Source: a virus (Duplodnaviria > Heunggongvirae > Uroviricota > Caudoviricetes). From it: 64,000 nt of DNA. Positions 2,594 through 56,897 of the stretch are shown here, one piece after another. The DNA lies in the IMG/VR virus record IMGVR_UViG_2909314774_000001. The stretch is one strand, 5' to 3'. Positions within the stretch are counted from its first letter, which is position 1, and each line of letters starts with the position of its first letter. The translations under genes were made by a program, and so were the position numbers. A model generated the notes under the pieces. It made no database searches. It had not been told where the DNA came from and saw only the letters and a program-made list of their open reading frames with translations.

Positions 2594-3694
2594 TCACACT
2601 GCGCGGAATGCGATTTCGCCAGGTATTACTTCACCTTGCCAATACATTTGGGCAGCAACGCGATCTGCGAGGTCACGATAAATAGCCGTAAATTCGCTAT
2701 CTGGACGACTAATAACGGTTGGTGTTCCGTTATCCAGATCTTCACGAAGAGAGATATGAAGTGGCATTTGGCCTAACAACTGCGTGTTGTATTTCTCGGC
2801 CAGTTTCTGTGCGCCACCGGTGCCAAAAATTGGCTCGTGATGACCGCAGTTACTGCAAATATGCACACTCATGTTTTCGACGATACCCAGTACCGGCACT
2901 TCGACTTTTTCGAACATCACAATGCCTTTCTTCGCATCGATCAGCGCGATGTCTTGCGGCGTAGTTACCACAACCGCACCAGTTACAGGAATGTTCTGCG
3001 CCAGCGTCAACTGAATATCACCAGTGCCCGGCGGCATATCGAGAACGAGATAGTCCAGATCAGGCCATAGAGTTTCCTGCAACATCTGCATCAGCGCCTT
3101 GCTGGCCATCGGTCCACGCCACACCATTGCATTGTCGTCGGTGACCAGATAACCAATAGAGTTGGTTGCCAGGCCATGAGACATGATAGGTGCCATGTGA
3201 GTACCGTCAGGTGAGGTTGGACGTTGGTTTTCCGCGCCCAGCATGGTTGGAATTGATGGACCATAGATATCGGCATCCAAAATACCAACTTTCGCACCTT
3301 CAGCAGCCAACGCCAGTGCCAGGTTCACCGCCGTGGAGGATTTACCCACGCCGCCCTTGCCTGAGCTGACGGCGATAATGTTCTTAACGCCATTAATGCC
3401 TGGTTGGTTTTTGACGCGCTTAAGCGTGGCAATGTTGTACGACAGCTTCCAGTCAATAGCCTTTGCGCCAGTGATACGGAGCAGATCACCACTACATTGC
3501 TCTTTCAGGTCTTCAAAAGGCTTATTCCACACGAAAGGCATGATTAGTTCGACATGCAGTGTGTCATCCATCAACGCAACATGGTGTAACGCTTTAAGCG
3601 TAGTCAGGTTGTGTTTCAGGGTTGGGTGCTGAAAATTAGCCAGCGTACCGGCTACCATTGCTCTCAGGGCATCCGGCGATTTGGACTCGCTCAT
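2594..3694 (-). CDS. apbC: iron-sulfur cluster carrier ATPase ApbC/Mrp
   Basis: 366-aa translation near-identical to E. coli Mrp (SSGKGGVGKSS P-loop, CxxC motif); divergent from metG as in E. coli. Confidence 0.95.
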   Translation of the reverse strand: MSESKSPDALRAMVAGTLANFQHPTLKHNLTTLKALHHVALMDDTLHVELIMPFVWNKPFEDLKEQCSGDLLRITGAKAIDWKLSYNIATLKRVKNQPGINGVKNIIAVSSGKGGVGKSSTAVNLALALAAEGAKVGILDADIYGPSIPTMLGAENQRPTSPDGTHMAPIMSHGLATNSIGYLVTDDNAMVWRGPMASKALMQMLQETLWPDLDYLVLDMPPGTGDIQLTLAQNIPVTGAVVVTTPQDIALIDAKKGIVMFEKVEVPVLGIVENMSVHICSNCGHHEPIFGTGGAQKLAEKYNTQLLGQMPLHISLREDLDNGTPTVISRPDSEFTAIYRDLADRVAAQMYWQGEVIPGEIAFRAV

Positions 3695-3851
3695 CCCGTC
3701 TCCTTTATTTTAATTTGCGCAATTGTCGCCTTGTAGTGTACTCCAGCTACGACATTTAATCATTTATGAGAAATGCTGTTATCACATGGCAGACATAAGG
3801 CCATTTTGTTACTATCAAGCCCCTTTTCACTACAAAGAAGTAATGCCTACT

Positions 3852-5885
3852 ATGACCCAAGTCGCGAAGAAAATTCTGGTGACGTGCGCGCTGCCGTACG
3901 CTAACGGCTCAATCCACCTCGGCCATATGCTGGAGCACATCCAGGCTGATGTCTGGGTTCGTTACCAGCGAATGCGCGGCCACGAGGTTAATTTCATCTG
4001 TGCCGACGATGCCCACGGTACGCCGATCATGCTGAAAGCACAGCAGCTTGGTATCACACCGGAGCAGATGATTGGCGAAATGAGTCAGGAACACCAGACT
4101 GATTTCGCAGGCTTTAACATCAGCTATGACAACTATCACTCGACGCACAGCGAAGAGAACCGTCAGTTGTCTGAGCTTATCTATACTCGCCTGAAAGAGA
4201 ACGGTTTTATTAAAAACCGCACTATCTCTCAGTTGTACGACCCGGAAAAAGGCATGTTCCTGCCGGATCGTTTTGTAAAAGGCACCTGCCCGAAATGTAA
4301 AGCGCCAGATCAATACGGCGATAACTGTGAAGTCTGCGGCGCGACCTACAGCCCGACTGAACTGATTGAGCCGAAATCGGTAGTTTCTGGCGCTACGCCG
4401 GTAATGCGTGATTCTGAACACTTCTTCTTTGATCTGCCCTCTTTCAGCGAAATGTTGCAGGCATGGACCCGCAGCGGCGCGTTGCAGGAGCAGGTGGCGA
4501 ACAAAATGCAGGAATGGTTTGAATCCGGCCTGCAACAGTGGGATATCTCCCGCGATGCGCCTTACTTCGGTTTTGAAATTCCGAACGCGCCGGGCAAATA
4601 TTTCTACGTCTGGCTGGACGCGCCGATTGGCTACATGGGTTCCTTCAAGAATCTGTGCGACAAACGCGGCGATACCACCAGCTTCGATGAATACTGGAAG
4701 AAAGACTCCACCGCCGAGCTGTACCACTTCATCGGTAAAGATATTGTTTACTTCCACAGCCTGTTCTGGCCTGCCATGCTGGAAGGCAGCAACTTCCGCA
4801 AGCCGACCAACTTGTTTGTTCACGGCTATGTGACGGTGAACGGCGCGAAGATGTCCAAGTCTCGCGGCACCTTTATTAAAGCCAGCACCTGGCTGAATCA
4901 TTTTGACGCCGACAGCCTGCGTTACTACTACACTGCGAAACTCTCTTCGCGCATTGATGATATCGATCTCAACCTGGAGGATTTCGTTCAGCGCGTGAAT
5001 GCCGATATCGTGAACAAAGTGGTTAACCTGGCCTCCCGTAATGCAGGCTTTATCAACAAGCGTTTTGACGGCGTGCTGGCAAGCGAACTGGCTGACCCGC
5101 AACTGTACAAAACCTTTACTGATGCCGCTGAAGTGATTGGCGAAGCATGGGAAAGCCGCGAATTTGGTAAAGCTATCCGTGAAATCATGGCATTGGCTGA
5201 CCTGGCTAACCGCTATGTCGATGAACAGGCTCCGTGGGTGGTGGCGAAGCAGGAAGGACGCGATGCCGATCTGCAGGCGATTTGCTCTATGGGCATTAAC
5301 CTGTTCCGCGTGCTGATGACGTACCTGAAGCCGGTACTGCCGAAACTGACTGAACGTGCAGAAGCATTCCTGAATACAGAACTGACCTGGGATGGTATCC
5401 AGCAACCGCTGCTGGGCCATAAAGTGAATCCGTTCAAGGCACTGTATAACCGTATCGATATGAAGCAGGTTGAAGCACTGGTGGAAGCATCTAAAGAAGA
5501 AGTGAAAGCAGCTGCCACGCCAGTAACTGGCCCGCTGGCAGATGATCCGATTCAGGAAACCATCACCTTTGATGACTTCGCCAAAGTTGACCTGCGCGTG
5601 GCGCTGATTGAAAACGCAGAGTTTGTAGAAGGTTCTGACAAACTGCTTCGCCTGACGCTGGATCTCGGTGGTGAAAAGCGTAATGTCTTCTCAGGCATCC
5701 GTTCCGCTTATCCAGATCCACAGGCACTGATTGGTCGTCACACCATTATGGTGGCTAACCTGGCACCACGTAAAATGCGCTTCGGTATCTCTGAAGGCAT
5801 GGTGATGGCTGCTGGCCCTGGCGGGAAAGATATCTTCCTGTTAAGCCCGGATGTCGGTGCTAAACCTGGCCACCAGGTTAAGTAA
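3852..5885 (+). CDS. metG: methionyl-tRNA synthetase
   Basis: translation from [26 protein letters not shown] matches E. coli MetG almost residue for residue (HIGH and KMSKS motifs); the ORF-track start at 3723 is an upstream in-frame extension. Confidence 0.97.
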
Positions 5886-5934: not shown

Positions 5935-6046
5935 ATAGACACAACCCCTTCTGACTTTAACAAACCCTAAAACAATTTGTTTTCTACCTTTTGTTGATTG
6001 AGATAATAAGCCACATAAGAAAACAAATTGTTTCGGAGTGGTTGAA

Positions 6047-6477: not shown

Positions 6478-7707
6478 ATGATAATTGAACAAATAACCCC
6501 TTGCTCGGAGCTTGGAATGACTGATACCGCTTTTTCAAAATCGTTACAAAAAGAAGTCGATCCTGAGCAGTACTTGGCGCTAAAGAATTTAGATGACAGC
6601 TCGGTTCATGCTATTGCCCGTGACGATATCATCTGCCCCATTTGCAAAGTTGGAGGTGGTTCGTTCGTTAGAGCCACTAGGAATGGTGGCTATCACAAGA
6701 AGGCGCATTTCAGATTTACCGGTGAAGATGGTCAAGGCCATCATCCATCATGTGATTTCTATGGAGATAGATTAACATCTGAGGTGAAGCAGCACCTTGT
6801 CTCATTCACAAAAGATCGAACAAAGTATTCGCAGGTAATACGAAAGCTGGTCTGTGCCGGCATACAGGAAGGGATATTTACTCAAGAAAAAATGTGGCAG
6901 ATGAGGGAATGGTTCTTCAATAAGCGAAAGGATTCCACATTTGAAATATGGTTAGAAAGCGAGCATTTAGACTGGCTTTATTATATTAGTGGGTTACGTG
7001 ATGCATATCTAGCATGGACAACTCCTGATATTCTACCTTTCGCGCCCATTCAGGTTACTGTCCCTGGTTTTTCTTGGAGGCGTGCGATTGACAAAGAGGT
7101 GCTAAGAGTTCACATCAAGACTCTCCAGCAATTGCGTGAAATTTCAGTCTCACATAGTGACATTGCTGTAATCTTAGAACACATAAACAATAATCGTGAC
7201 CGCACAATTCTCGATCCATCGCATTTGGAGGACGAGATAAGTAAGACCTATAAGCTTACTAGTTTTGTGATGGGCAATTACATTGAGTTTCAGACAAAAA
7301 CGGTTAGCGACAGAGCATACGGGGAAGCTAAGTTTCTGGCATTTGCAGCACTTTTGTTGTTCGTGTCAGATTGGGACCTCAACATTGCTATTGGTAAGTT
7401 TTCTAAGATTGCCAGAGTGAAGGAGGTTGATGACATGCTGGCTGGTAATTTCATTGGTCTTAATCCTTACTTCCGATACGACCTGGCTAATGCAGTGAAG
7501 AGATTGCAGGATAACTGGCCGATTGAATACCAAGAGTTGGAGCATTGGAATGTTGAGAAATCCATGCGTGACGCATATGAAAAGTGGCGTGCGACAGAGC
7601 CTGAATTCGCTCCACCCCTATTGCCAGACTTGTATATTGCCAAACATGAGAAAGAAGTCGCACAAGACGAGCAAGTCAGGCAGTGGATTAAGAACGGGGA
7701 TGTTTGA
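6478..7707 (+). CDS. hypothetical protein with N-terminal Cys/His cluster (CPIC ... HH..C), function unknown
   Basis: 409-aa ORF; no recognisable catalytic motif. Confidence 0.55.
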   Translation: MIIEQITPCSELGMTDTAFSKSLQKEVDPEQYLALKNLDDSSVHAIARDDIICPICKVGGGSFVRATRNGGYHKKAHFRFTGEDGQGHHPSCDFYGDRLTSEVKQHLVSFTKDRTKYSQVIRKLVCAGIQEGIFTQEKMWQMREWFFNKRKDSTFEIWLESEHLDWLYYISGLRDAYLAWTTPDILPFAPIQVTVPGFSWRRAIDKEVLRVHIKTLQQLREISVSHSDIAVILEHINNNRDRTILDPSHLEDEISKTYKLTSFVMGNYIEFQTKTVSDRAYGEAKFLAFAALLLFVSDWDLNIAIGKFSKIARVKEVDDMLAGNFIGLNPYFRYDLANAVKRLQDNWPIEYQELEHWNVEKSMRDAYEKWRATEPEFAPPLLPDLYIAKHEKEVAQDEQVRQWIKNGDV

Positions 7708-8148
7708 GTGTAATTAGCTTAATCAATCAGTTGATAATGGCGGTCACAATTTGATTCTTTTCTATAAGAACCCGTTGATCGCCACTACTCCCATCCCATA
7801 CCAGCAATCACATCATTAAATATCAATAGGTTAACGTTGTTTATACCAATAAGAAAACAACTAAATAACAGATCAACGAAACATCAACGCTTTCTCCCGA
7901 TTTGGTCTAAAAAATTGACGTTATCACACATCACTTCTTATACCCGTAATTCTACGCAGCAGATAGCGCCACAGCGTCCAAATTTCACCACAAACGACTC
8001 AACACACTACCAACAAAAACACACGCTCAAAATCGCTCCCGTTGCGTTACACAACCATATAAACAACTTATTTTCAGGCATAACAAAACAACTAAATAAC
8101 ACATATGACATTCCCCAAAACAACCAACCTCTTTATGGCAGGCTACCG

Positions 8149-8215
8149 AAAAGACCCACCTCTTCTCCCCAGGCTACCGGACAACCAACCTAACTTTCAC
8201 AGGCAATCCGAAAAC
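8149..8215 (+). repeat. three imperfect direct repeats CAGGCTACCG-N-CCAACCT inside a G-depleted tract
   Basis: repeat units starting near 8149, 8171, 8201; the same family recurs at 12135-12210. Confidence 0.5.
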
Positions 8216-8701
8216 ATTCATACGCGCGATACCCACGACACGCCATTCCCCAAACAGCGAAGAAACACCAGAATCACTGAAACCCCAACGAAGCCTGTTA
8301 CCGCAAGGTTTCTCTCAATCCCAAAAGACACGAAACATAACAATCACGGGAAACGCCATTACCCAATACACGAATAACTACAAAAGCCCTTCACGCACTC
8401 CAGACAAACAACTCAAACACAATAACGAAAGCAATCGCCCACCTGCCATTACTCCATACACGGAGAAGAACAATCACCAAAACGACGAGAACACCCCATA
8501 GAAGAACCACCGCAAAACGAACGAAACCATTTACACCGACAGAGAGAACAACACACCCAATTCACCAACAGAAATAGTCGCCGCATAGAACGTTCTGGAA
8601 GGAGTGAGCATTAACGCCTATAGAGAGGTTGAGACAGATAAAACACGAAGAAAACACAACATGTATAGCGAACAAGCCAGGTATGTATAAGTGGGGAGGG
8701 A

Positions 8702-8726
8702 AGGAGGTGTGTCGCCTCCTTTTTCG
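8702..8726 (+). terminator. intrinsic terminator (AGGAGG tgtgtcg CCTCCT + TTTTT)
   Basis: stem-loop with T-run at the 3' edge of the G-depleted tract. Confidence 0.6.
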
Positions 8727-8810
8727 TATTTATTCAACTCCTGATTTTATCCCCCGTAACACCCCTACGGTCAGCCTTCGGTCCATACAGGGAAAAGGCT
8801 GCATCCCGCT

Positions 8811-8930
8811 ACAGAAACGGCTGGGTTGCCTTCGGGGAACGGCTGGAGGTTTTCAGGGAAACGGTCGAGTTGCCTGTGTGGATTTCGGGAAACGGCTCGA
8901 TGCCGGTTCAGGAACGGTGGCGTACCGGTA
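8811..8930 (+). repeat. five direct repeats with core G(G/A)AACGG(C/T) at roughly 21-32 bp spacing (iteron-like)
   Basis: cagaaacggctgggttgcc / ggggaacggctggagg / cagggaaacggtcgagttgcc / cgggaaacggctcgatgcc / caggaacggtggcg. Confidence 0.6.
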
Positions 8931-9300
8931 TAGCGAGAGGGAGAGTTGCGGCTACCCACCTGTAATGTGCGGGAAGAAGAGAGGCGCTCACGTGCAGGCG
9001 GACTAACTTACCGTTGGACTCCCTCTGAATGCCCAACTACAGCGTAATTGTGCCAGAGAGTCAGCGGGTCACAATCGATTTCAGTAGGTTTTCGGGGAGA
9101 AGAAAATTCTGCCCACCAGCCCTGCGGCGCGCGTAGGGCAGAATATCGTAAATACTGGTTCCGTGTCGTTCCCGGATACTCACTACCCAGCCTGGCTTTC
9201 CCGACATAAAATCCTTTTCCGCCTTTGTCTTATTGCGATAATAACACCAACAAGTAAACAACATGTTTAGACGTTATATAAACGAAGTGAGGATGAAGAG

Positions 9301-9519
9301 ATGATTAAGATGCCTGTGACGGTTGAGGTGTGGGGCGTGGATTCCCTGGCTGAGTGTCTGGATGCAGTGGGGCCGGAGTTGTACCGCAAGTTGTGGTCGT
9401 TCGTCCCGGCAGAAGGGGAATCGCCCAAAGGGAAGGATATCTGGCACCTGCTGAGTGAAGATGAAAAGCGGGAGCTGGTGTACGCGGTACACAGCGAGTT
9501 CCCGGGCGACGAAGATTAA
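9301..9519 (+). CDS. small acidic early protein (72 aa)
   Basis: class-A palindrome at 9254-9270, RBS GAGGA, hairpin 9526-9547 downstream. Confidence 0.5.
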   Translation: MIKMPVTVEVWGVDSLAECLDAVGPELYRKLWSFVPAEGESPKGKDIWHLLSEDEKRELVYAVHSEFPGDED

Positions 9520-9525
9520 GAGTGA

Positions 9526-9547
9526 GGCCACCAGCACGGTGGCTTTT
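9526..9547 (+). terminator. hairpin GGCCACC agcac GGTGGC + TTTT (member of a repeated GGCCACCA..TGGTGGCC hairpin family)
   Basis: stem-loop followed by T-run; related copies at 11621-11640 and 12094-12116. Confidence 0.55.
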
Positions 9548-9657
9548 GTCGCTATTAACCTCCGGGCAGCGCAGCACCGTAACGATATACTTTGTGGCCG
9601 TTTTCTTACTGGTATTGTTTACGCAATTCAGAAAACAACATGTTTAAGGATTGCGTT

Positions 9658-9987: not shown

Positions 9988-10141
9988 CCCCAACCAAAGC
10001 CAGCATTGCTGGCTTAACTTAATCTGTAGCCGCAGGGAAGAACCTGCATATCGCTCATGCGCCTGATCAATATGCTTTGTAGCCGCTTTCTTACTGGTAT
10101 TATTTACGCCATTGAGAAAACAAGTTGTTTACGGAGTTGTG

Positions 10142-10995: not shown

Positions 10996-11020
10996 AACCG
11001 CGCCATTTTCTTATGCCCGA
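10996..11020 (+). terminator. intrinsic terminator (ATGGCGCG taaac CGCGCCAT + TTTC)
   Basis: perfect 8-bp GC stem. Confidence 0.65.
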
Positions 11021-11092
11021 TAACAATTTGTTTTCTGCCTTATCTGATTTGTGAAAATGATTTCACTGAAGCAACTTAATAAGGAAACCATC

Positions 11093-11467: not shown

Positions 11468-11796
11468 ATATGGGCGATTTCAAGAAACGCCTGAAGGAAA
11501 GAGTCGAGATGGTCAGAAAGCAAAACGCCTCTTCTGTCATCAGATACGCAAGGCAGTTTAGTCGCAACAACAAATCAGTTGAGGAAAAGATCCTTAGCGT
11601 AATCGGGCGATAATTATTAAGGCCACCAGCATTGGTGGTCTTAAATGACTTTTAATAACCGAAGGTTAGTTTGAAACCTGGCTATCAACTTCCAGAACCT
11701 TTCTTGTGTATTCAGCCTGTATTAACTTCTTTTATGCCTTATCTACACTGCGATAATTACATCAACAAGAAAACAACATGTTTACGCAGTGAGGAT

Positions 11797-12084: not shown

Positions 12085-12134
12085 AGAGTAAGGCCACCAA
12101 TGCTGGTGGCCTTAAATGACCATCCTGTTTCCCG

Positions 12135-12210
12135 CAGGCTAAAACACCAACCTCTTACCTCCAGGCAACCGACAAACCCACCTGTTCCCGTCCGGCTACC
12201 GCAACTTTCC
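12135..12210 (+). repeat. second cluster of CAGGCTA/CCGGCTACCG-type direct repeats in a C-rich, G-poor segment
   Basis: gcaggctaaaacaccaacct / ccaggcaaccgacaaacccacct / ccggctaccgcaactttcc. Confidence 0.45.
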
Positions 12211-12287
12211 ACTTTGACGCCTTATTCGTACAACGATAATTAACACCAACAAGAAAACAATTTGTTATTTACGATAAGGAATTAATC

Positions 12288-12770
12288 ATGAATTTTATCG
12301 CTACTGTAAACGCACCCGCACATGGCAATATCGCTGTAACGTTCTCTGACATTGAAAAACGAGTACTTGGTGCATGGCGCGACAATGAGACGGTAGAACT
12401 GTCAGCACAAGAAAAATGCATTATTGCACGCGACATCATTGGCAATCGTCGTTACTCGCGGGTATTTGAGAAAGCGTATGTGGTAAATTCTGGATTCGGA
12501 ACGTTCGTCTTTCCGGTGCGCTCCGGGCGATTCTGCCAGTCCAAGCTGATTGAGTTCGCTACGCAGATTTCTGTCTGGATTAAAACTCAATCGTCGTTCA
12601 AATTTTCCGACGATGAAGCAGTATCGCAGGGGATGCGGATCGCCAACAATGCGATTAAATGCAAAAACATTACGTATACCGCTGGCGTTGACACATGGAA
12701 ACTGTTTTGCGCTAACTTTATGCTGAATGTATACGCAAGCAACCGCATCCACATCCTTGATGGCGTGTAA
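12288..12770 (+). CDS. hypothetical protein (160 aa) flanked by both direct-repeat families
   Basis: class-A palindrome 12254-12268; RBS AAGGAA; followed by hairpin AGGGCC agaaac GGCCCT. Confidence 0.55.
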   Translation: MNFIATVNAPAHGNIAVTFSDIEKRVLGAWRDNETVELSAQEKCIIARDIIGNRRYSRVFEKAYVVNSGFGTFVFPVRSGRFCQSKLIEFATQISVWIKTQSSFKFSDDEAVSQGMRIANNAIKCKNITYTAGVDTWKLFCANFMLNVYASNRIHILDGV

Positions 12771-12780
12771 CTGAGAAGAG

Positions 12781-12905
12781 GGCCAGAAACGGCCCTTTCT
12801 CTATAGCCACCAGCTGCCGCAGGGAAATTTTCAGAAACGGCGAGGAACGCATTCATGAGCCGACGGGAAACGGCCAGGATTTTTTCGGGAAACGGCTGCA
12901 TTCGC
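12781..12905 (+). repeat. second cluster of GAAACGGC direct repeats (four copies)
   Basis: ggccagaaacggccc / cagaaacggcgagg / cgggaaacggccagg / cgggaaacggctgc. Confidence 0.55.
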
Positions 12906-13386
12906 CTTTATATAGAAAAAACATCGGGAAGCTGGTGGAATCCAACCAGCGGTTGTCGGACAGGTGAGCGGGGAAAATTATGATGACTTTCGTCGCCTGA
13001 GACATCCAGATTTCTTTCGTAGCGTAATCACATATGTGATTAAGTGGTGTGATTATGTGAAAAATCACGCGCACATAATACGCGAGCGGATACGGAACAA
13101 AACAAAATGCCGATCCGCGCCGACAATTAAACGCGGATCACATAGCAAGAATAAAAGCCAATGATTAACCATACACCATAACGCAATATAACGCGATTTA
13201 AGCGCGTTAATGCGCTAAGTAATGGGTATGTACTGGTAAGGATATAAAAGCGCGTCTATGGCGTTATTTTGGCGCTTATTTTTATGTTGTTGGAGTGAGT
13301 CAAAGACAATAAAAAAAGCGCCATCATTGGCGCGTTATGGTGGAAGTATTGGAAACGAAAAAAGCGCCCATAGTGGGCGCTCGATT

Positions 13387-14909: not shown

Positions 14910-15434
14910 TCAAAAAGGCAAAATTCGTTCAACCCAATCGAACAAAACAACTATTTTTCTACCGTTCTCGACACGTAGTGTAACCTGACAAGCATCTGCG
15001 CCTGCTGACACCCCCTCAATTTCACGGCCATCCGCCATGTACACCCTTATAGATTTGTTTGCTTTGTAGGCTTGGTTGCAAATTGCAAAAAAATCGCGGC
15101 GTGATGGCCGATTATCGACATAATCAGGGTGAACTGTTAGTCGACCTTTGAAATCGTGAGCGATACTGTCAACCACACCTGATTCAATTGTACTAATGCG
15201 TTCAAGTGGGAGCCTTATACGATTTTCTTTGTCAAAAGGGGCTGGGCAAAGGTCAACTTTGTTACGAGATGGCATGAGGCCATAAACGTACATGCAAAAC
15301 GCCTGGCCATCTTCGAGAGTGACCCTTACAGGAATTTGTTCTCTGCGCCAGAACATCAGTAGTTTTTCAACGTTAGTGTAATCTCGCGGCCAGAGTTCAG
15401 CTTGGATACCGTAGGTAATATCTTTGGTTGTCAT
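14910..15434 (-). CDS. hypothetical protein (about 175 aa from the internal Met MTTKDITYG)
   Basis: ORF-track frame; start chosen to abut the upstream lipoprotein gene. Confidence 0.45.
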   Translation of the reverse strand: MTTKDITYGIQAELWPRDYTNVEKLLMFWRREQIPVRVTLEDGQAFCMYVYGLMPSRNKVDLCPAPFDKENRIRLPLERISTIESGVVDSIAHDFKGRLTVHPDYVDNRPSRRDFFAICNQAYKANKSIRVYMADGREIEGVSAGADACQVTLRVENGRKIVVLFDWVERILPF

Positions 15435-15438
15435 GTCA

Positions 15439-15861
15439 TCACAGAGTTGTTGGCAGAATGTCGATGTCACCAGAATTGCTGGTGAACACCCTGAATGCTT
15501 TTGTGTCTCCATTCTTCAGAGTCGTTTCTCGCTCTTGACGAGCGGGGTTTAGAGCACATAAACCTGCACCTTCAAGAGATGCACCCACAATTAATTCTCC
15601 GGCATTTAAATGGAAAGTCGCTTTTTCGCCTGTAGCCAGTTTTGCGACAGTTTCGCCGTTGATGAAAATGGAAGCATCACATCCAGCTCCTACAAAACCT
15701 GTGTCTCTCATTACCACCAACGTAGCTGGCGCTGCGCTTTGATACTTGAACACTTTGGCCTGCGGTGCTGGTTTGGCGTCATGGATTGATATTGGGCGTG
15801 ATTGGCACGCGGCAAGCATCAACACTGGTAACGTTAGTAGAGGGAGAAGCGAGTATTTCAT
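15439..15861 (-). CDS. putative lipoprotein (lipobox LMLAAC after a signal peptide)
   Basis: MKYSLLPLLTLPVLMLAACQS: leader plus Cys lipobox. Confidence 0.6.
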   Translation of the reverse strand: MKYSLLPLLTLPVLMLAACQSRPISIHDAKPAPQAKVFKYQSAAPATLVVMRDTGFVGAGCDASIFINGETVAKLATGEKATFHLNAGELIVGASLEGAGLCALNPARQERETTLKNGDTKAFRVFTSNSGDIDILPTTL

Positions 15862-21106: not shown

Positions 21107-21222
21107 TTAATAAGACATGCCCAGACCTAATTAAACACCCCAGAAAACAAGTTGGTTAGCAGATTCAGTAAACAAGTTGTTTTAGAGCGCATGGACGCGC
21201 TCTGTGTGTTTTAGAGGGATCT

Positions 21223-52828: not shown

Positions 52829-53146
52829 GTATTCCTCCTGATGGCCGTGATGTAGGAAGGCCATCAATCTCCTCTGTTCAAACTGAGTTTTCGACTCAAA
52901 AATTACTTTAAAAGGCTATAGCCCATTACGTGTGCATTATCAAATTGTGTACGGCATATCACCGTACTTGTAATATAGAGGTCATTGTTACTTTTTTCAA
53001 CAGACAAATACAAGCTATGATTGCCAATTGTTAATCACAACCTACCATTTAACCTTTACACCGCAGCCGTAGGCATTTAGGCTATATCACATATAAGAAA
53101 ACAAGTTGTTTCAGACGATAATTATATACGCAAAGGGAACTCTCCA

Positions 53147-54225: not shown

Positions 54226-55932
54226 ATGGAATCGATAGAAGTATTTTTAAAAAATTTTTTGGACTCAGATCATCGGGTTGCTGTCATAAAAGGAAATTGG
54301 GGAGTAGGTAAAACGCATTATTGGAATAGCTTTTATACTAAACATTCTAAAAAATTAGATTTTAATGCATATTCATATGTTTCTTTGTTTGGAATAAATT
54401 CTATTGGAGACATTAAAAAAGCTCTTTATCATTGTGCCACACCAATTAATGAAAAGAAATATAAAGAACTGATTTTATCTGAAACGGATCGAACTATGAT
54501 TCGTTATAGAAATGGGTTTTGGGGATGGTTGAAATACAACTCCTTGTCAAAATTTTTAATACATTTTGGAAAGAACGATTTTTTTGGGTTCAAAACTGAT
54601 AATCTGCTGTCATCTCTTGAGTATAAATTTGTTAATAATTATTTGGTTTGCATTGATGATATTGAACGAAAAGGTAGTGCGCTAGAAATTAAAGAGATTA
54701 TGGGGGTAATTGATGAGTTGGCAAGAAGAAAAAATTGCAAGGTTGTTCTAATATTAAATGAAGATAACTTACATGAAGAAACTGCACAACAACAGTTTTT
54801 AGAGTATAGAGAAAAAATAATTGATGTGGAAATAAAATACGATCCCACGCCTGAGAAAAACTTAAGAAAAGTTTTTTATGAGACTGACCCTGATTTTCTT
54901 TTGTTAAAAAACCTAGTAAATGATTTAAACATCAAAAACATTAGAATATTAAATAAAATAAAATCATCTCTAGTTATATTTAGAGATGTGCTAAAGTTAG
55001 CAGAGGATAAGGTTAGAGAAAGTTTTATTAATAGATTGGTCTTATTTTCAGTGGTTTACTATTTTGGTGTTCCTAGCGTTGATTATGCTTCATTTAAGGA
55101 GTCAATCAAAAATATACATGCATTCGACTATATGTTAGATGATAAAGATGAAAAGGAAGAAGTTAACTCTGTATATTCATTTGTTAATAGCCTTGATGTT
55201 ATTTATGAACGAGCAGAAAGTGCTTTCGATGATGATATAGATTTTTACCTTAAGAACGGTTATGTTTCTTCTGAAAGCAATATTCTAAATATAATAAAAG
55301 AAAAAAATGAACAATATAGAGATAATAGGGTTTTATGTGAGGTTTATAAAATTTGGGATGTTTTTAGAAACTCTTTTAAAGATAATGAATCAGAGTTTAT
55401 TTTTCAAATTGAGCGCGTAATTAACGATAGTCTGTTGCGTATACCAATTGGACAGTTCGTAGGTTTAATAAATGTCCTAATTAAATTGGATAGAGATTGT
55501 AATAATATTATAGAGGCATATGCAGATGCTTTTGTTAATAAAGAAAATGCGTATGCTACATTTAATTCTTTGCGAGTAGAGATCTTCGGAAATGAAGAAT
55601 TAGGTTTCAGAATTGAAAAAAAATTGAAAGATAGAAATCCAGATGACTATAACTTAGATAAAATTATAAAAAAAATAGCTGGTGGAAGATTTAACCATAG
55701 TGATGTGAATATTCTTAACAGTTTTTCTAAAGATGATTACGTAAACTGGATATTATCCTGTGATCAGGATGCTTTGAATTTAGTAGAAGAGACTATGCTC
55801 AAGTTCAAGGGTATGCAACACCCGACAGACGAACAGAAGAGCATCACTGATAAAGCAATAGAAGCTTTGGAGGAAGTTGCTTCAAAATCAACACTTAATA
55901 AGCTGCGTGTTAATAAAATACTCAATCATTAA
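54226..55932 (+). CDS. KAP-family P-loop NTPase
   Basis: Walker A GNWGVGKTHYW (the G.WG.GK(S/T) form typical of KAP NTPases), Walker B LVCIDDIER; strongly AT-rich gene. Confidence 0.75.
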   Translation: MESIEVFLKNFLDSDHRVAVIKGNWGVGKTHYWNSFYTKHSKKLDFNAYSYVSLFGINSIGDIKKALYHCATPINEKKYKELILSETDRTMIRYRNGFWGWLKYNSLSKFLIHFGKNDFFGFKTDNLLSSLEYKFVNNYLVCIDDIERKGSALEIKEIMGVIDELARRKNCKVVLILNEDNLHEETAQQQFLEYREKIIDVEIKYDPTPEKNLRKVFYETDPDFLLLKNLVNDLNIKNIRILNKIKSSLVIFRDVLKLAEDKVRESFINRLVLFSVVYYFGVPSVDYASFKESIKNIHAFDYMLDDKDEKEEVNSVYSFVNSLDVIYERAESAFDDDIDFYLKNGYVSSESNILNIIKEKNEQYRDNRVLCEVYKIWDVFRNSFKDNESEFIFQIERVINDSLLRIPIGQFVGLINVLIKLDRDCNNIIEAYADAFVNKENAYATFNSLRVEIFGNEELGFRIEKKLKDRNPDDYNLDKIIKKIAGGRFNHSDVNILNSFSKDDYVNWILSCDQDALNLVEETMLKFKGMQHPTDEQKSITDKAIEALEEVASKSTLNKLRVNKILNH

Positions 55933-56854: not shown

Positions 56855-56897
56855 CTAATACTAGAAAACAATTTGTTTAAAAAACAAAGGAAAGCAC

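Follow-up and report, generated by a model that had tools for sequence, protein, structure and literature searches.

A strongly selected, G-depleted non-coding tract behind the cargo hotspot of SSU5/pHCM2-type phage-plasmids is a candidate for a very long Rho-dependent terminator

The virus record IMGVR_UViG_2909314774_000001 of the IMG/VR database was analysed over 64,000 nucleotides (the whole stretch, referred to as the window, numbered from its first letter). Because of its matches to both plasmids and phages, the window is assigned to a phage-plasmid of the SSU5/pHCM2 type. Approximately 1 kb of its plus strand (about 7730-8730), located immediately downstream from a hotspot for cargo genes, is depleted in G, poor in T, and rich in A and C. 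Comparison of relatives indicates that this tract is a strongly selected, widely conserved, and unannotated non-coding module. In the best reading that we can offer, the tract would act as a terminator or an insulator rather than as an RNA with a job of its own. This reading departs from a preliminary description of the same DNA, which had proposed a possible long non-coding RNA. We tentatively suggest, at somewhat less than even chances, that the tract is a very long Rho-dependent terminator/insulator that shields the early region of the element from the transcription of cargo genes.

Base composition is the most prominent property of the tract. Between 7920 and 8580, the frequencies are 0.395 for A, 0.330 for C, 0.121 for G, and 0.154 for T, compared to a G frequency of 0.25 in the whole window. 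The G content of roughly 12% announced for this segment was therefore reproduced by measurement, and the presence of only 3 G residues in the 60 nt at 7981-8040 can be read directly off the sequence. Windowed analysis of composition and skew, which the preliminary description had proposed as a check, located the lowest-G 660-nt stretch of the window at a start position of 7782 (G 0.111, z = -4.5; 0.165 for the runner-up). From about 7700 to 8600, the GC skew ranges from -0.27 to -0.58 and the AT skew from +0.2 to +0.61. In the complete relative plasmid NZ_AP027545.1 (111,667 bp), the tract displays the most extreme A+C/G+T skew of the entire plasmid (0.258 in the orientation of the record, versus a mean of 0.50, a standard deviation of 0.03, and a next value of 0.40), and no second similar tract was found elsewhere in this plasmid. 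The G-depleted, T-poor, A/C-rich core extends from 7790 to 8590 on the plus strand, with a C/G ratio of at least 2 over most of its length. It is followed by a switch from C-rich to G-rich sequence and by a purine/G-rich 3' segment (8590-8697, plus strand) that was seen in all relatives. The skew reported initially is thus real, but its limits had to be revised, since the tract starts nearer 7730-7790 than 7850 and its last 130 nt or so (8590-8726) are purine/G-rich.

The tract is widespread. Among 5,426 complete E. coli genomes, 242 had a match to the 1,041 nt around it, in each case on a plasmid of about 110 kb. The same 1,041 nt were also matched by phages CMS-2020a, PhiR41_1, Cyrano, and SSU5 and by Klebsiella phages. 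The 837 plasmids that matched originate from Klebsiella, Escherichia, Enterobacter, Salmonella (including pHCM2), Citrobacter, and Cronobacter. A search of the literature on SSU5, pHCM2, and phage-plasmids retrieved nothing on the region of the tract. In all clades, A+C accounts for 65-78% and G for 11-22 per 100 nt over about 800-900 nt, before a switch to 32-42% G. Alignment columns that vary still contain 64% A+C, and the spectrum of substitutions is as expected from a stationary process with this composition. The most divergent relatives (contigs L076, L082, and L084) show 48% aligned identity and no blastn match in the tract. They nonetheless harbor about 900 nt with 59-70% A+C and 13-20% G, followed by a purine-rich segment and by the same GGGAAACGG repeats. 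The tract is thus a clear instance in which the character that is conserved is base composition and not sequence.

The origin of this composition was assessed at the four-fold degenerate sites of the co-oriented flanking genes. Frequencies at these sites are 0.17 for A, 0.26 for C, 0.29 for G, and 0.29 for T (G+T 58%), corresponding to a skew of the opposite direction. Thus, regional strand-biased mutation pressure is not the cause, and the comparison indicates that the skew of the tract is selected rather than mutational. A strand-specific composition kept by selection points to a function exerted as a single strand. Since every neighbouring gene between 3.7 and 12.8 kb is carried by the plus strand, this single strand would most simply be a plus-strand RNA. 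A single-strand-specific function in replication or packaging had also been envisaged. The strand-specific part of this proposal is supported by the selected composition and by wobble pairs that are legal on the plus strand only (see below). The packaging part is unlikely because the terminase genes are located about 13 kb away, and a role in replication is conceivable because an array of repeats phased by 22 bp lies immediately downstream.

Several lines of evidence indicate that the tract does not encode a protein. In a nine-sequence alignment spanning the clades, most indels have lengths that are not multiples of 3 (multiples of 3 account for none of the 10 that separate SSU5 from a Klebsiella phage), and the substitutions show an even distribution over the three codon phases instead of a concentration at third positions. 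The annotation by the Prokaryotic Genome Annotation Pipeline (PGAP) of the RefSeq records that we examined leaves a gap of about 1.4-1.6 kb at the tract, with the sole exception of a 153-nt minus-strand open reading frame (ORF) in a Citrobacter plasmid. Minus-strand ORFs within the tract were deposited in two other cases, SSU5_108 (L002 5489-5728) and QBP27487.1 of a Klebsiella phage (L003 5519-5776), and their products are 65% identical over 63 residues. However, the frame of SSU5_108 is interrupted in close relatives by two to five in-frame stop codons, the differences in length between the corresponding segments are not multiples of 3, and changes are most frequent at codon position 2. Long open frames are expected in the tract in any case because its composition depletes stop codons. 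SSU5_108 and QBP27487.1 are therefore composition artefacts rather than conserved genes. The same applies to the plus-strand ORFs 7837-8193 and 8105-8377, which exist mechanically and had been interpreted in this manner from the outset. The conserved coding frame in relatives that was to refute the non-coding proposal was not found by the indel, codon-phase, and stop-codon analyses. Open frames are present on both strands, but a gene encoding a low-complexity protein, in either orientation, is hardly credible in the face of these data.

The position of the tract is also informative. The conserved block begins sharply, and the gene content upstream from it varies among relatives. In the window, the upstream gene encodes a 409-residue protein of no assigned function. 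In relatives, this location is occupied by genes for a GIY-YIG nuclease and a small protein, by a gene for a 186-residue protein, by small ORFs, or by a type I restriction-modification system with a GmrSD/DUF262 protein. In L076, it is occupied by a gene for a 158-residue protein of no assigned function, with a DUF4942 gene farther upstream in L076 and L078. Of the 44 distinct contexts found upstream, 30 contain a plus-strand frame of at least 90 codons whose end lies at most 150 nt (mostly 4-27 nt) before the block, and several others contain frames of 65-73 codons ending 6-10 nt before it. Since co-oriented frames end just upstream, the tract would be the shared 3' untranslated tail of the hotspot cargo gene in most elements.

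The properties of the corresponding RNA were deduced by folding and by motif counts. The 15 least foldable 200-nt windows of the entire plus strand are all located in 7751-8650, with minimum free energies (MFE) of -7.6 to -23 kcal/mol for a mean of -52.6 kcal/mol and a standard deviation of 10. The fold of a 786-nt stretch (-118.8 kcal/mol, z = -0.75) was no better than that of shuffled sequences, and the consensus fold of 38 relatives only reached -26 kcal/mol. These two values rule out a globally structured RNA. A 680-nt stretch of the tract contains 3 start codons (ATG, GTG, or TTG), the minimum of the window, for 36.6 +/- 7.1 window-wide. The same stretch contains 3 Shine-Dalgarno-like tetramers and 96 YC dinucleotides (versus 64.8 +/- 11.8), which is within two of the window maximum, itself located in the tract. 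We infer that the RNA of the tract would be free of ribosomes. In 78-nt windows, the mean numbers of C and G are 24.6 and 9.4, respectively, the maximum ratio is 7.3, and the C/G ratio is about 2.6 over some 600 nt. The longest plus-strand runs with a C/G ratio of at least 2 in the entire window are found at 7905-8331 and 8291-8503. Rho utilization (rut) sites are defined as C-rich and G-poor RNA of at least 70-80 nt with a C/G ratio greater than 1 in a 78-nt window (PMC6407284). The tract combines an excess of C over G, little structure, and the lack of a conserved reading frame, and it does so continuously over about ten times the required length.

Based on these features, transcription could proceed as follows. 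The hotspot gene, whichever is present, ends a few nucleotides before the conserved block. RNA polymerase would then synthesize about 800 nt of an untranslatable, C- and YC-rich RNA that, with 12% G and 15% U, does not fold. Such an RNA would provide a loading substrate for Rho, leading to release of the polymerase within the tract or just past it, and the hairpin and U-run at 8698-8729 would stop residual transcription. The stem-loop located right past the stop codon would shield the 3' end of the upstream mRNA against trimming. The outcome would be that constitutive transcription of the cargo is kept off the 22-bp repeat array and the repressed early promoters. The T-run of the terminal hairpin is on the plus strand, as are the neighbouring genes, which is in favor of this proposal.

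The hairpin and T-run that end the tract (8698-8729, plus strand) comprise a 12-pair stem followed by TTTTT and are predicted to form an intrinsic terminator, with a fold energy of -22.5 kcal/mol (z = -3.3 in the window). The terminator announced at this location is thus present (hairpin and T-run at 8698-8724) but is strong in the E. coli lineage only, the hairpins of Klebsiella relatives being weaker (in the Klebsiella relative scanned, the hairpin passes the terminator scan). Past the terminator, the plus strand carries an array of five to six direct repeats of (C/G)AGGGAAACGGCTG (8788-8920) starting at 8788, 8810, 8832, 8854, 8885, and 8909, the first four being exactly 22 bp apart. The motif of the array has 14 matches in the window versus 4.9 expected, clustered at 8788-8920, and sequence conservation of the repeats extends to all clades, even the most divergent one. 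The array looks like a set of iterons. The repeats are unlike the RepA iterons of the plasmid replicon, and the vegetative origin of the plasmid (oriV) was rejected as a candidate, repA being located about 37 kb away with its unrelated iterons. A second, smaller cluster of GGGAAACGGC repeats is present at 12820-12898. The two clusters of GGGAAACGGC(T)G repeats together bracket the small early genes. In one E. coli plasmid, an IS26 insertion was detected directly past the array (L005 4448-5152).

At its other end, the tract contains a conserved 5' domain (7730-7942, plus strand) that begins about 23 nt past the upstream stop codon (7705-7707) and includes about 60 nt that are nearly invariant among 39 non-redundant relatives. 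The arms of a hairpin, GGCGGTCA at 7739-7746 and TGATCGCC at 7776-7783, enclose a loop with the invariant core TTTCTATAAG (7759-7768). The L076-type lineage has CAACCTCTC and GAGAGGTTG in place of these arms and retains the loop core. Single-base variants in the arms still pair via U.G or A-U, with a single exception that disrupts a pair. Two long-range helices are candidates on the plus strand. One pairs 7730-7735 with 7883-7888 (terminal pair 11:159: C-G 24, U.G 8, U-A 6), and the other pairs 7763-7770 with 7935-7942 (terminal pair 46:212: A-U 23, G-C 10, G.U 4). In these helices, 98.8% of the cells are paired, versus 25-56% if the partners are slid. The wobble pairs of the hairpin and of the helices are legal on the plus strand only. 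Alternative helices among GTTGAC-type 7-mers were uninformative. In relatives, in which a search for covariance had been proposed as a check, compensatory pairs were thus found in the 5' domain. With few independent events, the fold of this domain is no more than suggestive.

The tract also contains modules resembling control elements of the early genes. The first of these (7837-7873, plus strand; TTGTTTATACCAATAAGAAAACAACTAAATAAC) is similar to an early-gene promoter/operator, belongs to repeat families D5 and D13, and includes a half-site of the motif AAGAAAACAAnnTGTTT. A second, related early-promoter-like module is found at 8057-8104, and L076 harbors the full palindrome at both module positions. 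A third conserved feature, TTGACG-N17-CTTATAC(C) (7915-7944, plus strand), consists of invariant columns and is conserved in every lineage, the spacing being the same in L076 (TTGACA-N17-CTTATAC). A search with the pattern TTGAC-N17-CTTATAC retrieved 69 viral contigs. This feature could act as a weak sigma-70-like promoter (TTGACG, 18 nt, TATACC) preceded by an A-tract, or it could supply the 3' strand of the long-range helix. A consensus scan for sigma-70 promoters detected none in the tract of three clades or in the upstream spacer of a Klebsiella relative.

Two families of repeats are embedded in the core. R1 consists of three tandem repeats of 30-31 nt, ACCnACCTCTT-N5-CAGGCTACCG, located at 8118-8213 on the plus strand and conserved in all clades. 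Its motif has 4 matches versus 0.01 expected, and the CAGGCTACCG-type direct repeats noticed in the preliminary description are part of this triplet. Tandem Repeats Finder did not call any tandem repeats. A second R1 triplet (12114-12205) is located upstream from the promoter of a gene encoding a 160-residue protein, such that this triplet and the second GGGAAACGGC cluster flank the latter gene, 4 kb downstream from the tract. R2 is a family of dispersed repeats, GCCATTACnCnATACACGGAGAAGAAC (8242-8471, plus strand), found near 8242, 8355, and 8445, and a degenerate copy occurs near 8524. Four to five copies are present in SSU5 and in a Klebsiella phage.

Not all of these features are accommodated by the proposal of a Rho-dependent terminator, and several observations weigh against it. 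Known rut sites span about 80 nt, and the model leaves the length of 800 nt unexplained. Neither the three R1 and four to five R2 repeats, nor the operator-like modules, nor TTGAC-N17-CTTATAC, all of which are conserved, are accounted for by Rho. In 5 of the 44 upstream contexts, a long minus-strand frame precedes the tract, which is kept. Scanning and folding did not reveal any convincing terminal hairpin in the SSU5/Salmonella clade, in which the terminator is essentially absent. We know of no requirement for T-depletion in the action of Rho. Finally, the adjacent repeat array allows an alternative at the DNA level. We attribute the T-depletion to avoidance of start codons and of A-U pairing, and the embedded repeats and operator-like modules may add regulation to termination. 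A different reading is that the tract, instead of being a passive terminator, is a decoy, producing an abundant, structure-free, C-rich RNA of about 0.8-1 kb that titrates Rho hexamers or another host factor binding single-stranded RNA. Genes of the element that are silenced by Rho would thereby be relieved, for example upon induction, which would make the tract the RNA counterpart of Psu, the protein inhibitor of Rho encoded by satellite P4. We consider a decoy to be improbable; a 2025 review on Rho does not mention decoys or titration (PMC12360218).

Two further alternatives, each of which we regard as unlikely though deserving serious consideration, assign the tract a function unrelated to termination. 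It could specify a discrete long non-coding RNA of about 0.8-1 kb, used as an open, repeat-bearing, C/A-rich platform or sponge for an RNA-binding protein or small RNAs, or its 3' end (8590-8726) could be a small RNA pairing with R1, both in the tract and at 12114-12205. The presence of conserved repeat families in an otherwise unstructured RNA, the conservation of the promoter- and operator-like modules at 7837-7873 and 7915-7944, the terminator at the end of the tract, and the covariation in the 5' domain are in agreement with this possibility, as is the fact that box 1 of R1 (CAACCTCT) recurs inverted at 8624-8631 and is paired with it in the MFE fold. However, a sigma-70 promoter passed the scan in none of the three clades, and Rfam 15 only detected, at the gathering score, three tRNAs elsewhere in the window and had no match in 7600-9400 even at E <= 1. 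Hfq-type (ARN)4 motifs are not enriched (1 observed versus 1.1 expected), and GGA is weakly enriched in 8590-8930 (12 versus 7.8 +/- 2.3 expected, P = 0.06). R1 and the 3' segment are strongly complementary only within the E. coli lineage, and the complementarity of the seed is not conserved. No partner protein was found, the 160-residue protein encoded beside the second R1 cluster having no recognisable fold. The other possibility is that the tract functions as DNA together with the 22-bp array, as a lytic or second origin (for example, activated by transcription or an R-loop) or as a looping or partition site, for which it would provide an unwinding, priming, or spacer region, the clusters 8788-8920 and 12820-12898 bracketing the early genes. 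The exact 22-bp phasing of four repeats, with two more, and their conservation even in the most divergent lineage argue for such a role. So do the second cluster 4 kb away, in the same relative order as the second R1 triplet, and the conserved switch from C-rich to G-rich sequence at about 8590. Moreover, genes for a helicase, a primase, a ligase, the DNA polymerase III alpha subunit, and RNase HI are present on the element itself, and the polarity of Chi sites changes around 12-20 kb, an outward-facing Chi pair bracketing the second cluster. Against this role, the GC content of the tract (43-50%) sets it apart from known unwinding elements, which are A+T-rich, an adjacent initiator gene is lacking, RepA with its different iterons being distant, and binding sites in double-stranded DNA do not need a strand-specific composition over 800 nt. 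In addition, the cumulative GC skew of the window does not display an origin-like minimum here beyond the effect of the tract itself.

It is far less probable that the tract is a functionless relic, either a decayed gene or a duplicated promoter module, with a skew that is a by-product of strand-biased mutation. The succession of the R1 triplet, about 570 nt, the terminator, and the GGGAAACGGC repeats does parallel that of the R1 triplet, the 160-residue-protein gene, a terminator, and repeats at 12114-12898. In some cointegrates of 214-265 kb, such as L011 and comparable large Klebsiella plasmids, only the first 460 nt or so of the tract have been kept. On the other hand, tblastn did not detect protein similarity left over from any neighbouring gene, including that of the 160-residue protein. 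The tract, with its invariant blocks, has been kept in more than 800 plasmids of five genera, its composition has been kept in a lineage that has diverged past detection by blastn, and the four-fold degenerate sites of co-oriented neighbours are skewed in the opposite way.

Additional features of the window were recorded. A 988-nt Logan contig (L090, SRR33769108) corresponds exactly to positions 7840-8827, and its ends may be those of a transcript or assembly breaks. The gene map of the window is consistent with an SSU5/pHCM2-type phage-plasmid. Upstream from the hotspot, the cargo genes metG, encoding a full-length methionyl-tRNA synthetase (plus strand), and apbC, encoding an apbC/mrp-type iron-sulfur carrier (minus strand), occupy 2594-5885 (2.6-5.9 kb). 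Small early-type genes are present on the plus strand at 9.3-12.8 kb, followed by a FljA-like repressor-family gene and a DEAD helicase gene on the minus strand. Genes for ParB-like, terminase, head, and tail proteins begin at 17.8 kb, a parA-like gene is found at 53 kb, and helicase, primase, and ligase genes are located at 56-62 kb. The right end of the window carries three consecutive tRNA genes (63637-63880). The only other compositional extreme of the window, 54226-55932 on the plus strand, is unrelated to the tract and corresponds to an ordinary ORF with a GC content of 28%. It encodes 568 residues with a KAP-family P-loop NTPase domain and sits between a parA-like/small-protein gene pair and the replication genes. 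This ORF is probably acquired cargo and possibly a defence gene.

The partly palindromic motif AAGAAAACAAnnTGTTT has 23 matches in the window, versus 4.1 expected. It is located 20-35 nt 5' of the start codons of the early genes, the parA-like gene, the DnaB-like helicase gene, and the gene preceding that of the large terminase subunit (sites at 5966-6033, 9252-9268, 9629-9645, 10114-10134, 11017-11037, 11767-11783, 12251-12271, 21141-21186, 53095-53111, and 56862-56878). The motif looks like an element-wide operator or 5'-untranslated-region box. A candidate for its binding is the 200-residue product of the FljA-like gene (14910-15512, minus strand), which is kept in relatives and matches Pfam PF03614 (the family of FljA, the phase-1 flagellin repressor) with E = 2.5e-84. 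Early promoters have extended -10 elements (TGnGATAAT). Chi (GCTGGTGG) occurs 22 times in the window versus 1.4 expected. Most of the copies between 4.7 and 16.4 kb are on the minus strand, and from 20.9 kb onward nearly all are on the plus strand. Examples are 9113-9120 (-), 9528-9535 (-), 11623-11630 (-), 12102-12109 (+), 12807-12814 (-), 12931-12938 (+), and the copies from 20918 onward (+). Several Chi copies are located inside the terminator hairpins of small early genes.

SSU5-type phage-plasmids are common in clinical Enterobacteriaceae, and their cargo for resistance, defence, and metabolism is carried by the hotspot directly upstream from the tract. A universal transcription stop for this hotspot, if the tract is one, would explain how very different cargo can be swapped without disturbing the repressed phage programme, and it would provide a compact natural insulator for engineering. 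If it is instead a trans-acting RNA or part of an origin, it would be an unannotated core element of a widespread family of mobile elements.

Judged by its sequence, the tract is not a member of Rfam families, CsrB-type or Hfq-target RNAs, type III antitoxin arrays, or iteron origins, although it shares isolated features with several of these systems. The sponge RNAs CsrB/CsrC and CrcZ are likewise non-coding RNAs with repeated short motifs, but the body of the tract is unstructured rather than organized as a series of hairpins. CsrB-type GGA motifs are almost lacking in its G-poor body, and the fold of 8727-8990 was no better than that of shuffled sequences. A CsrA sponge was rejected, the weak enrichment in GGA being confined to the 3' and repeat-array part, as was an Hfq/Crc target RNA, AAYAAYAA motifs being absent in addition to the lack of (ARN)4 enrichment. 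In type III toxin-antitoxin systems (ToxI), the R1 tandem units of about 30 nt and the occurrence of their second copy before a gene of toxin size (160 residues) have a parallel. A promoter, and not a terminator, separates these repeats from the gene, and the 160-residue protein did not match ToxN-like or defence-system models or any solved fold. Iteron origins (P1 incC/incA, F, R6K, and lambda ori) resemble the adjacent array, with its 22-bp-phased repeats and its second cluster elsewhere. Phased repeats of about 20 bp are thus found in the array and not in the G-poor tract, which has no counterpart in those origins. An adjacent initiator and an A+T-rich unwinding element are lacking, and the genes neighbouring the array are small and have no assigned function.

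Plasmid-prophages and satellites produce immunity leader RNAs, including the CI RNA of P4 with its seqA/seqC targets, the CA RNA of N15, and c4 of P1. As a lead, the tract is similar to these in being an untranslated leader with short repeats that are possible targets of a processed RNA causing premature termination. It differs from them by the lack of a processed small RNA, of a complementary seed conserved across clades, and of an obviously controlled antirepressor or replication gene downstream. The closest likeness is to rut regions, such as lambda tR1, trp t', and E. coli operon-end terminators, with which the tract shares an untranslated, unstructured RNA with a large excess of C over G and numerous YC dinucleotides past a stop codon, as well as a pause or termination hairpin downstream. 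The upstream stem-loop of the tract is as expected for 3' trimming of Rho-terminated transcripts, 3'-end processing being mentioned in the review cited above (PMC12360218). In comparison to rut regions, the tract, which is known here from sequence alone, is about ten times longer than the 80 nt or so that one Rho hexamer needs, is T-poor and A-rich, and forms a conserved sequence family with repeats. If our proposal is correct, it would be by far the longest conserved Rho-loading region that we are aware of, and the most economical explanation would be that of a known mechanism operating at an unusual scale.

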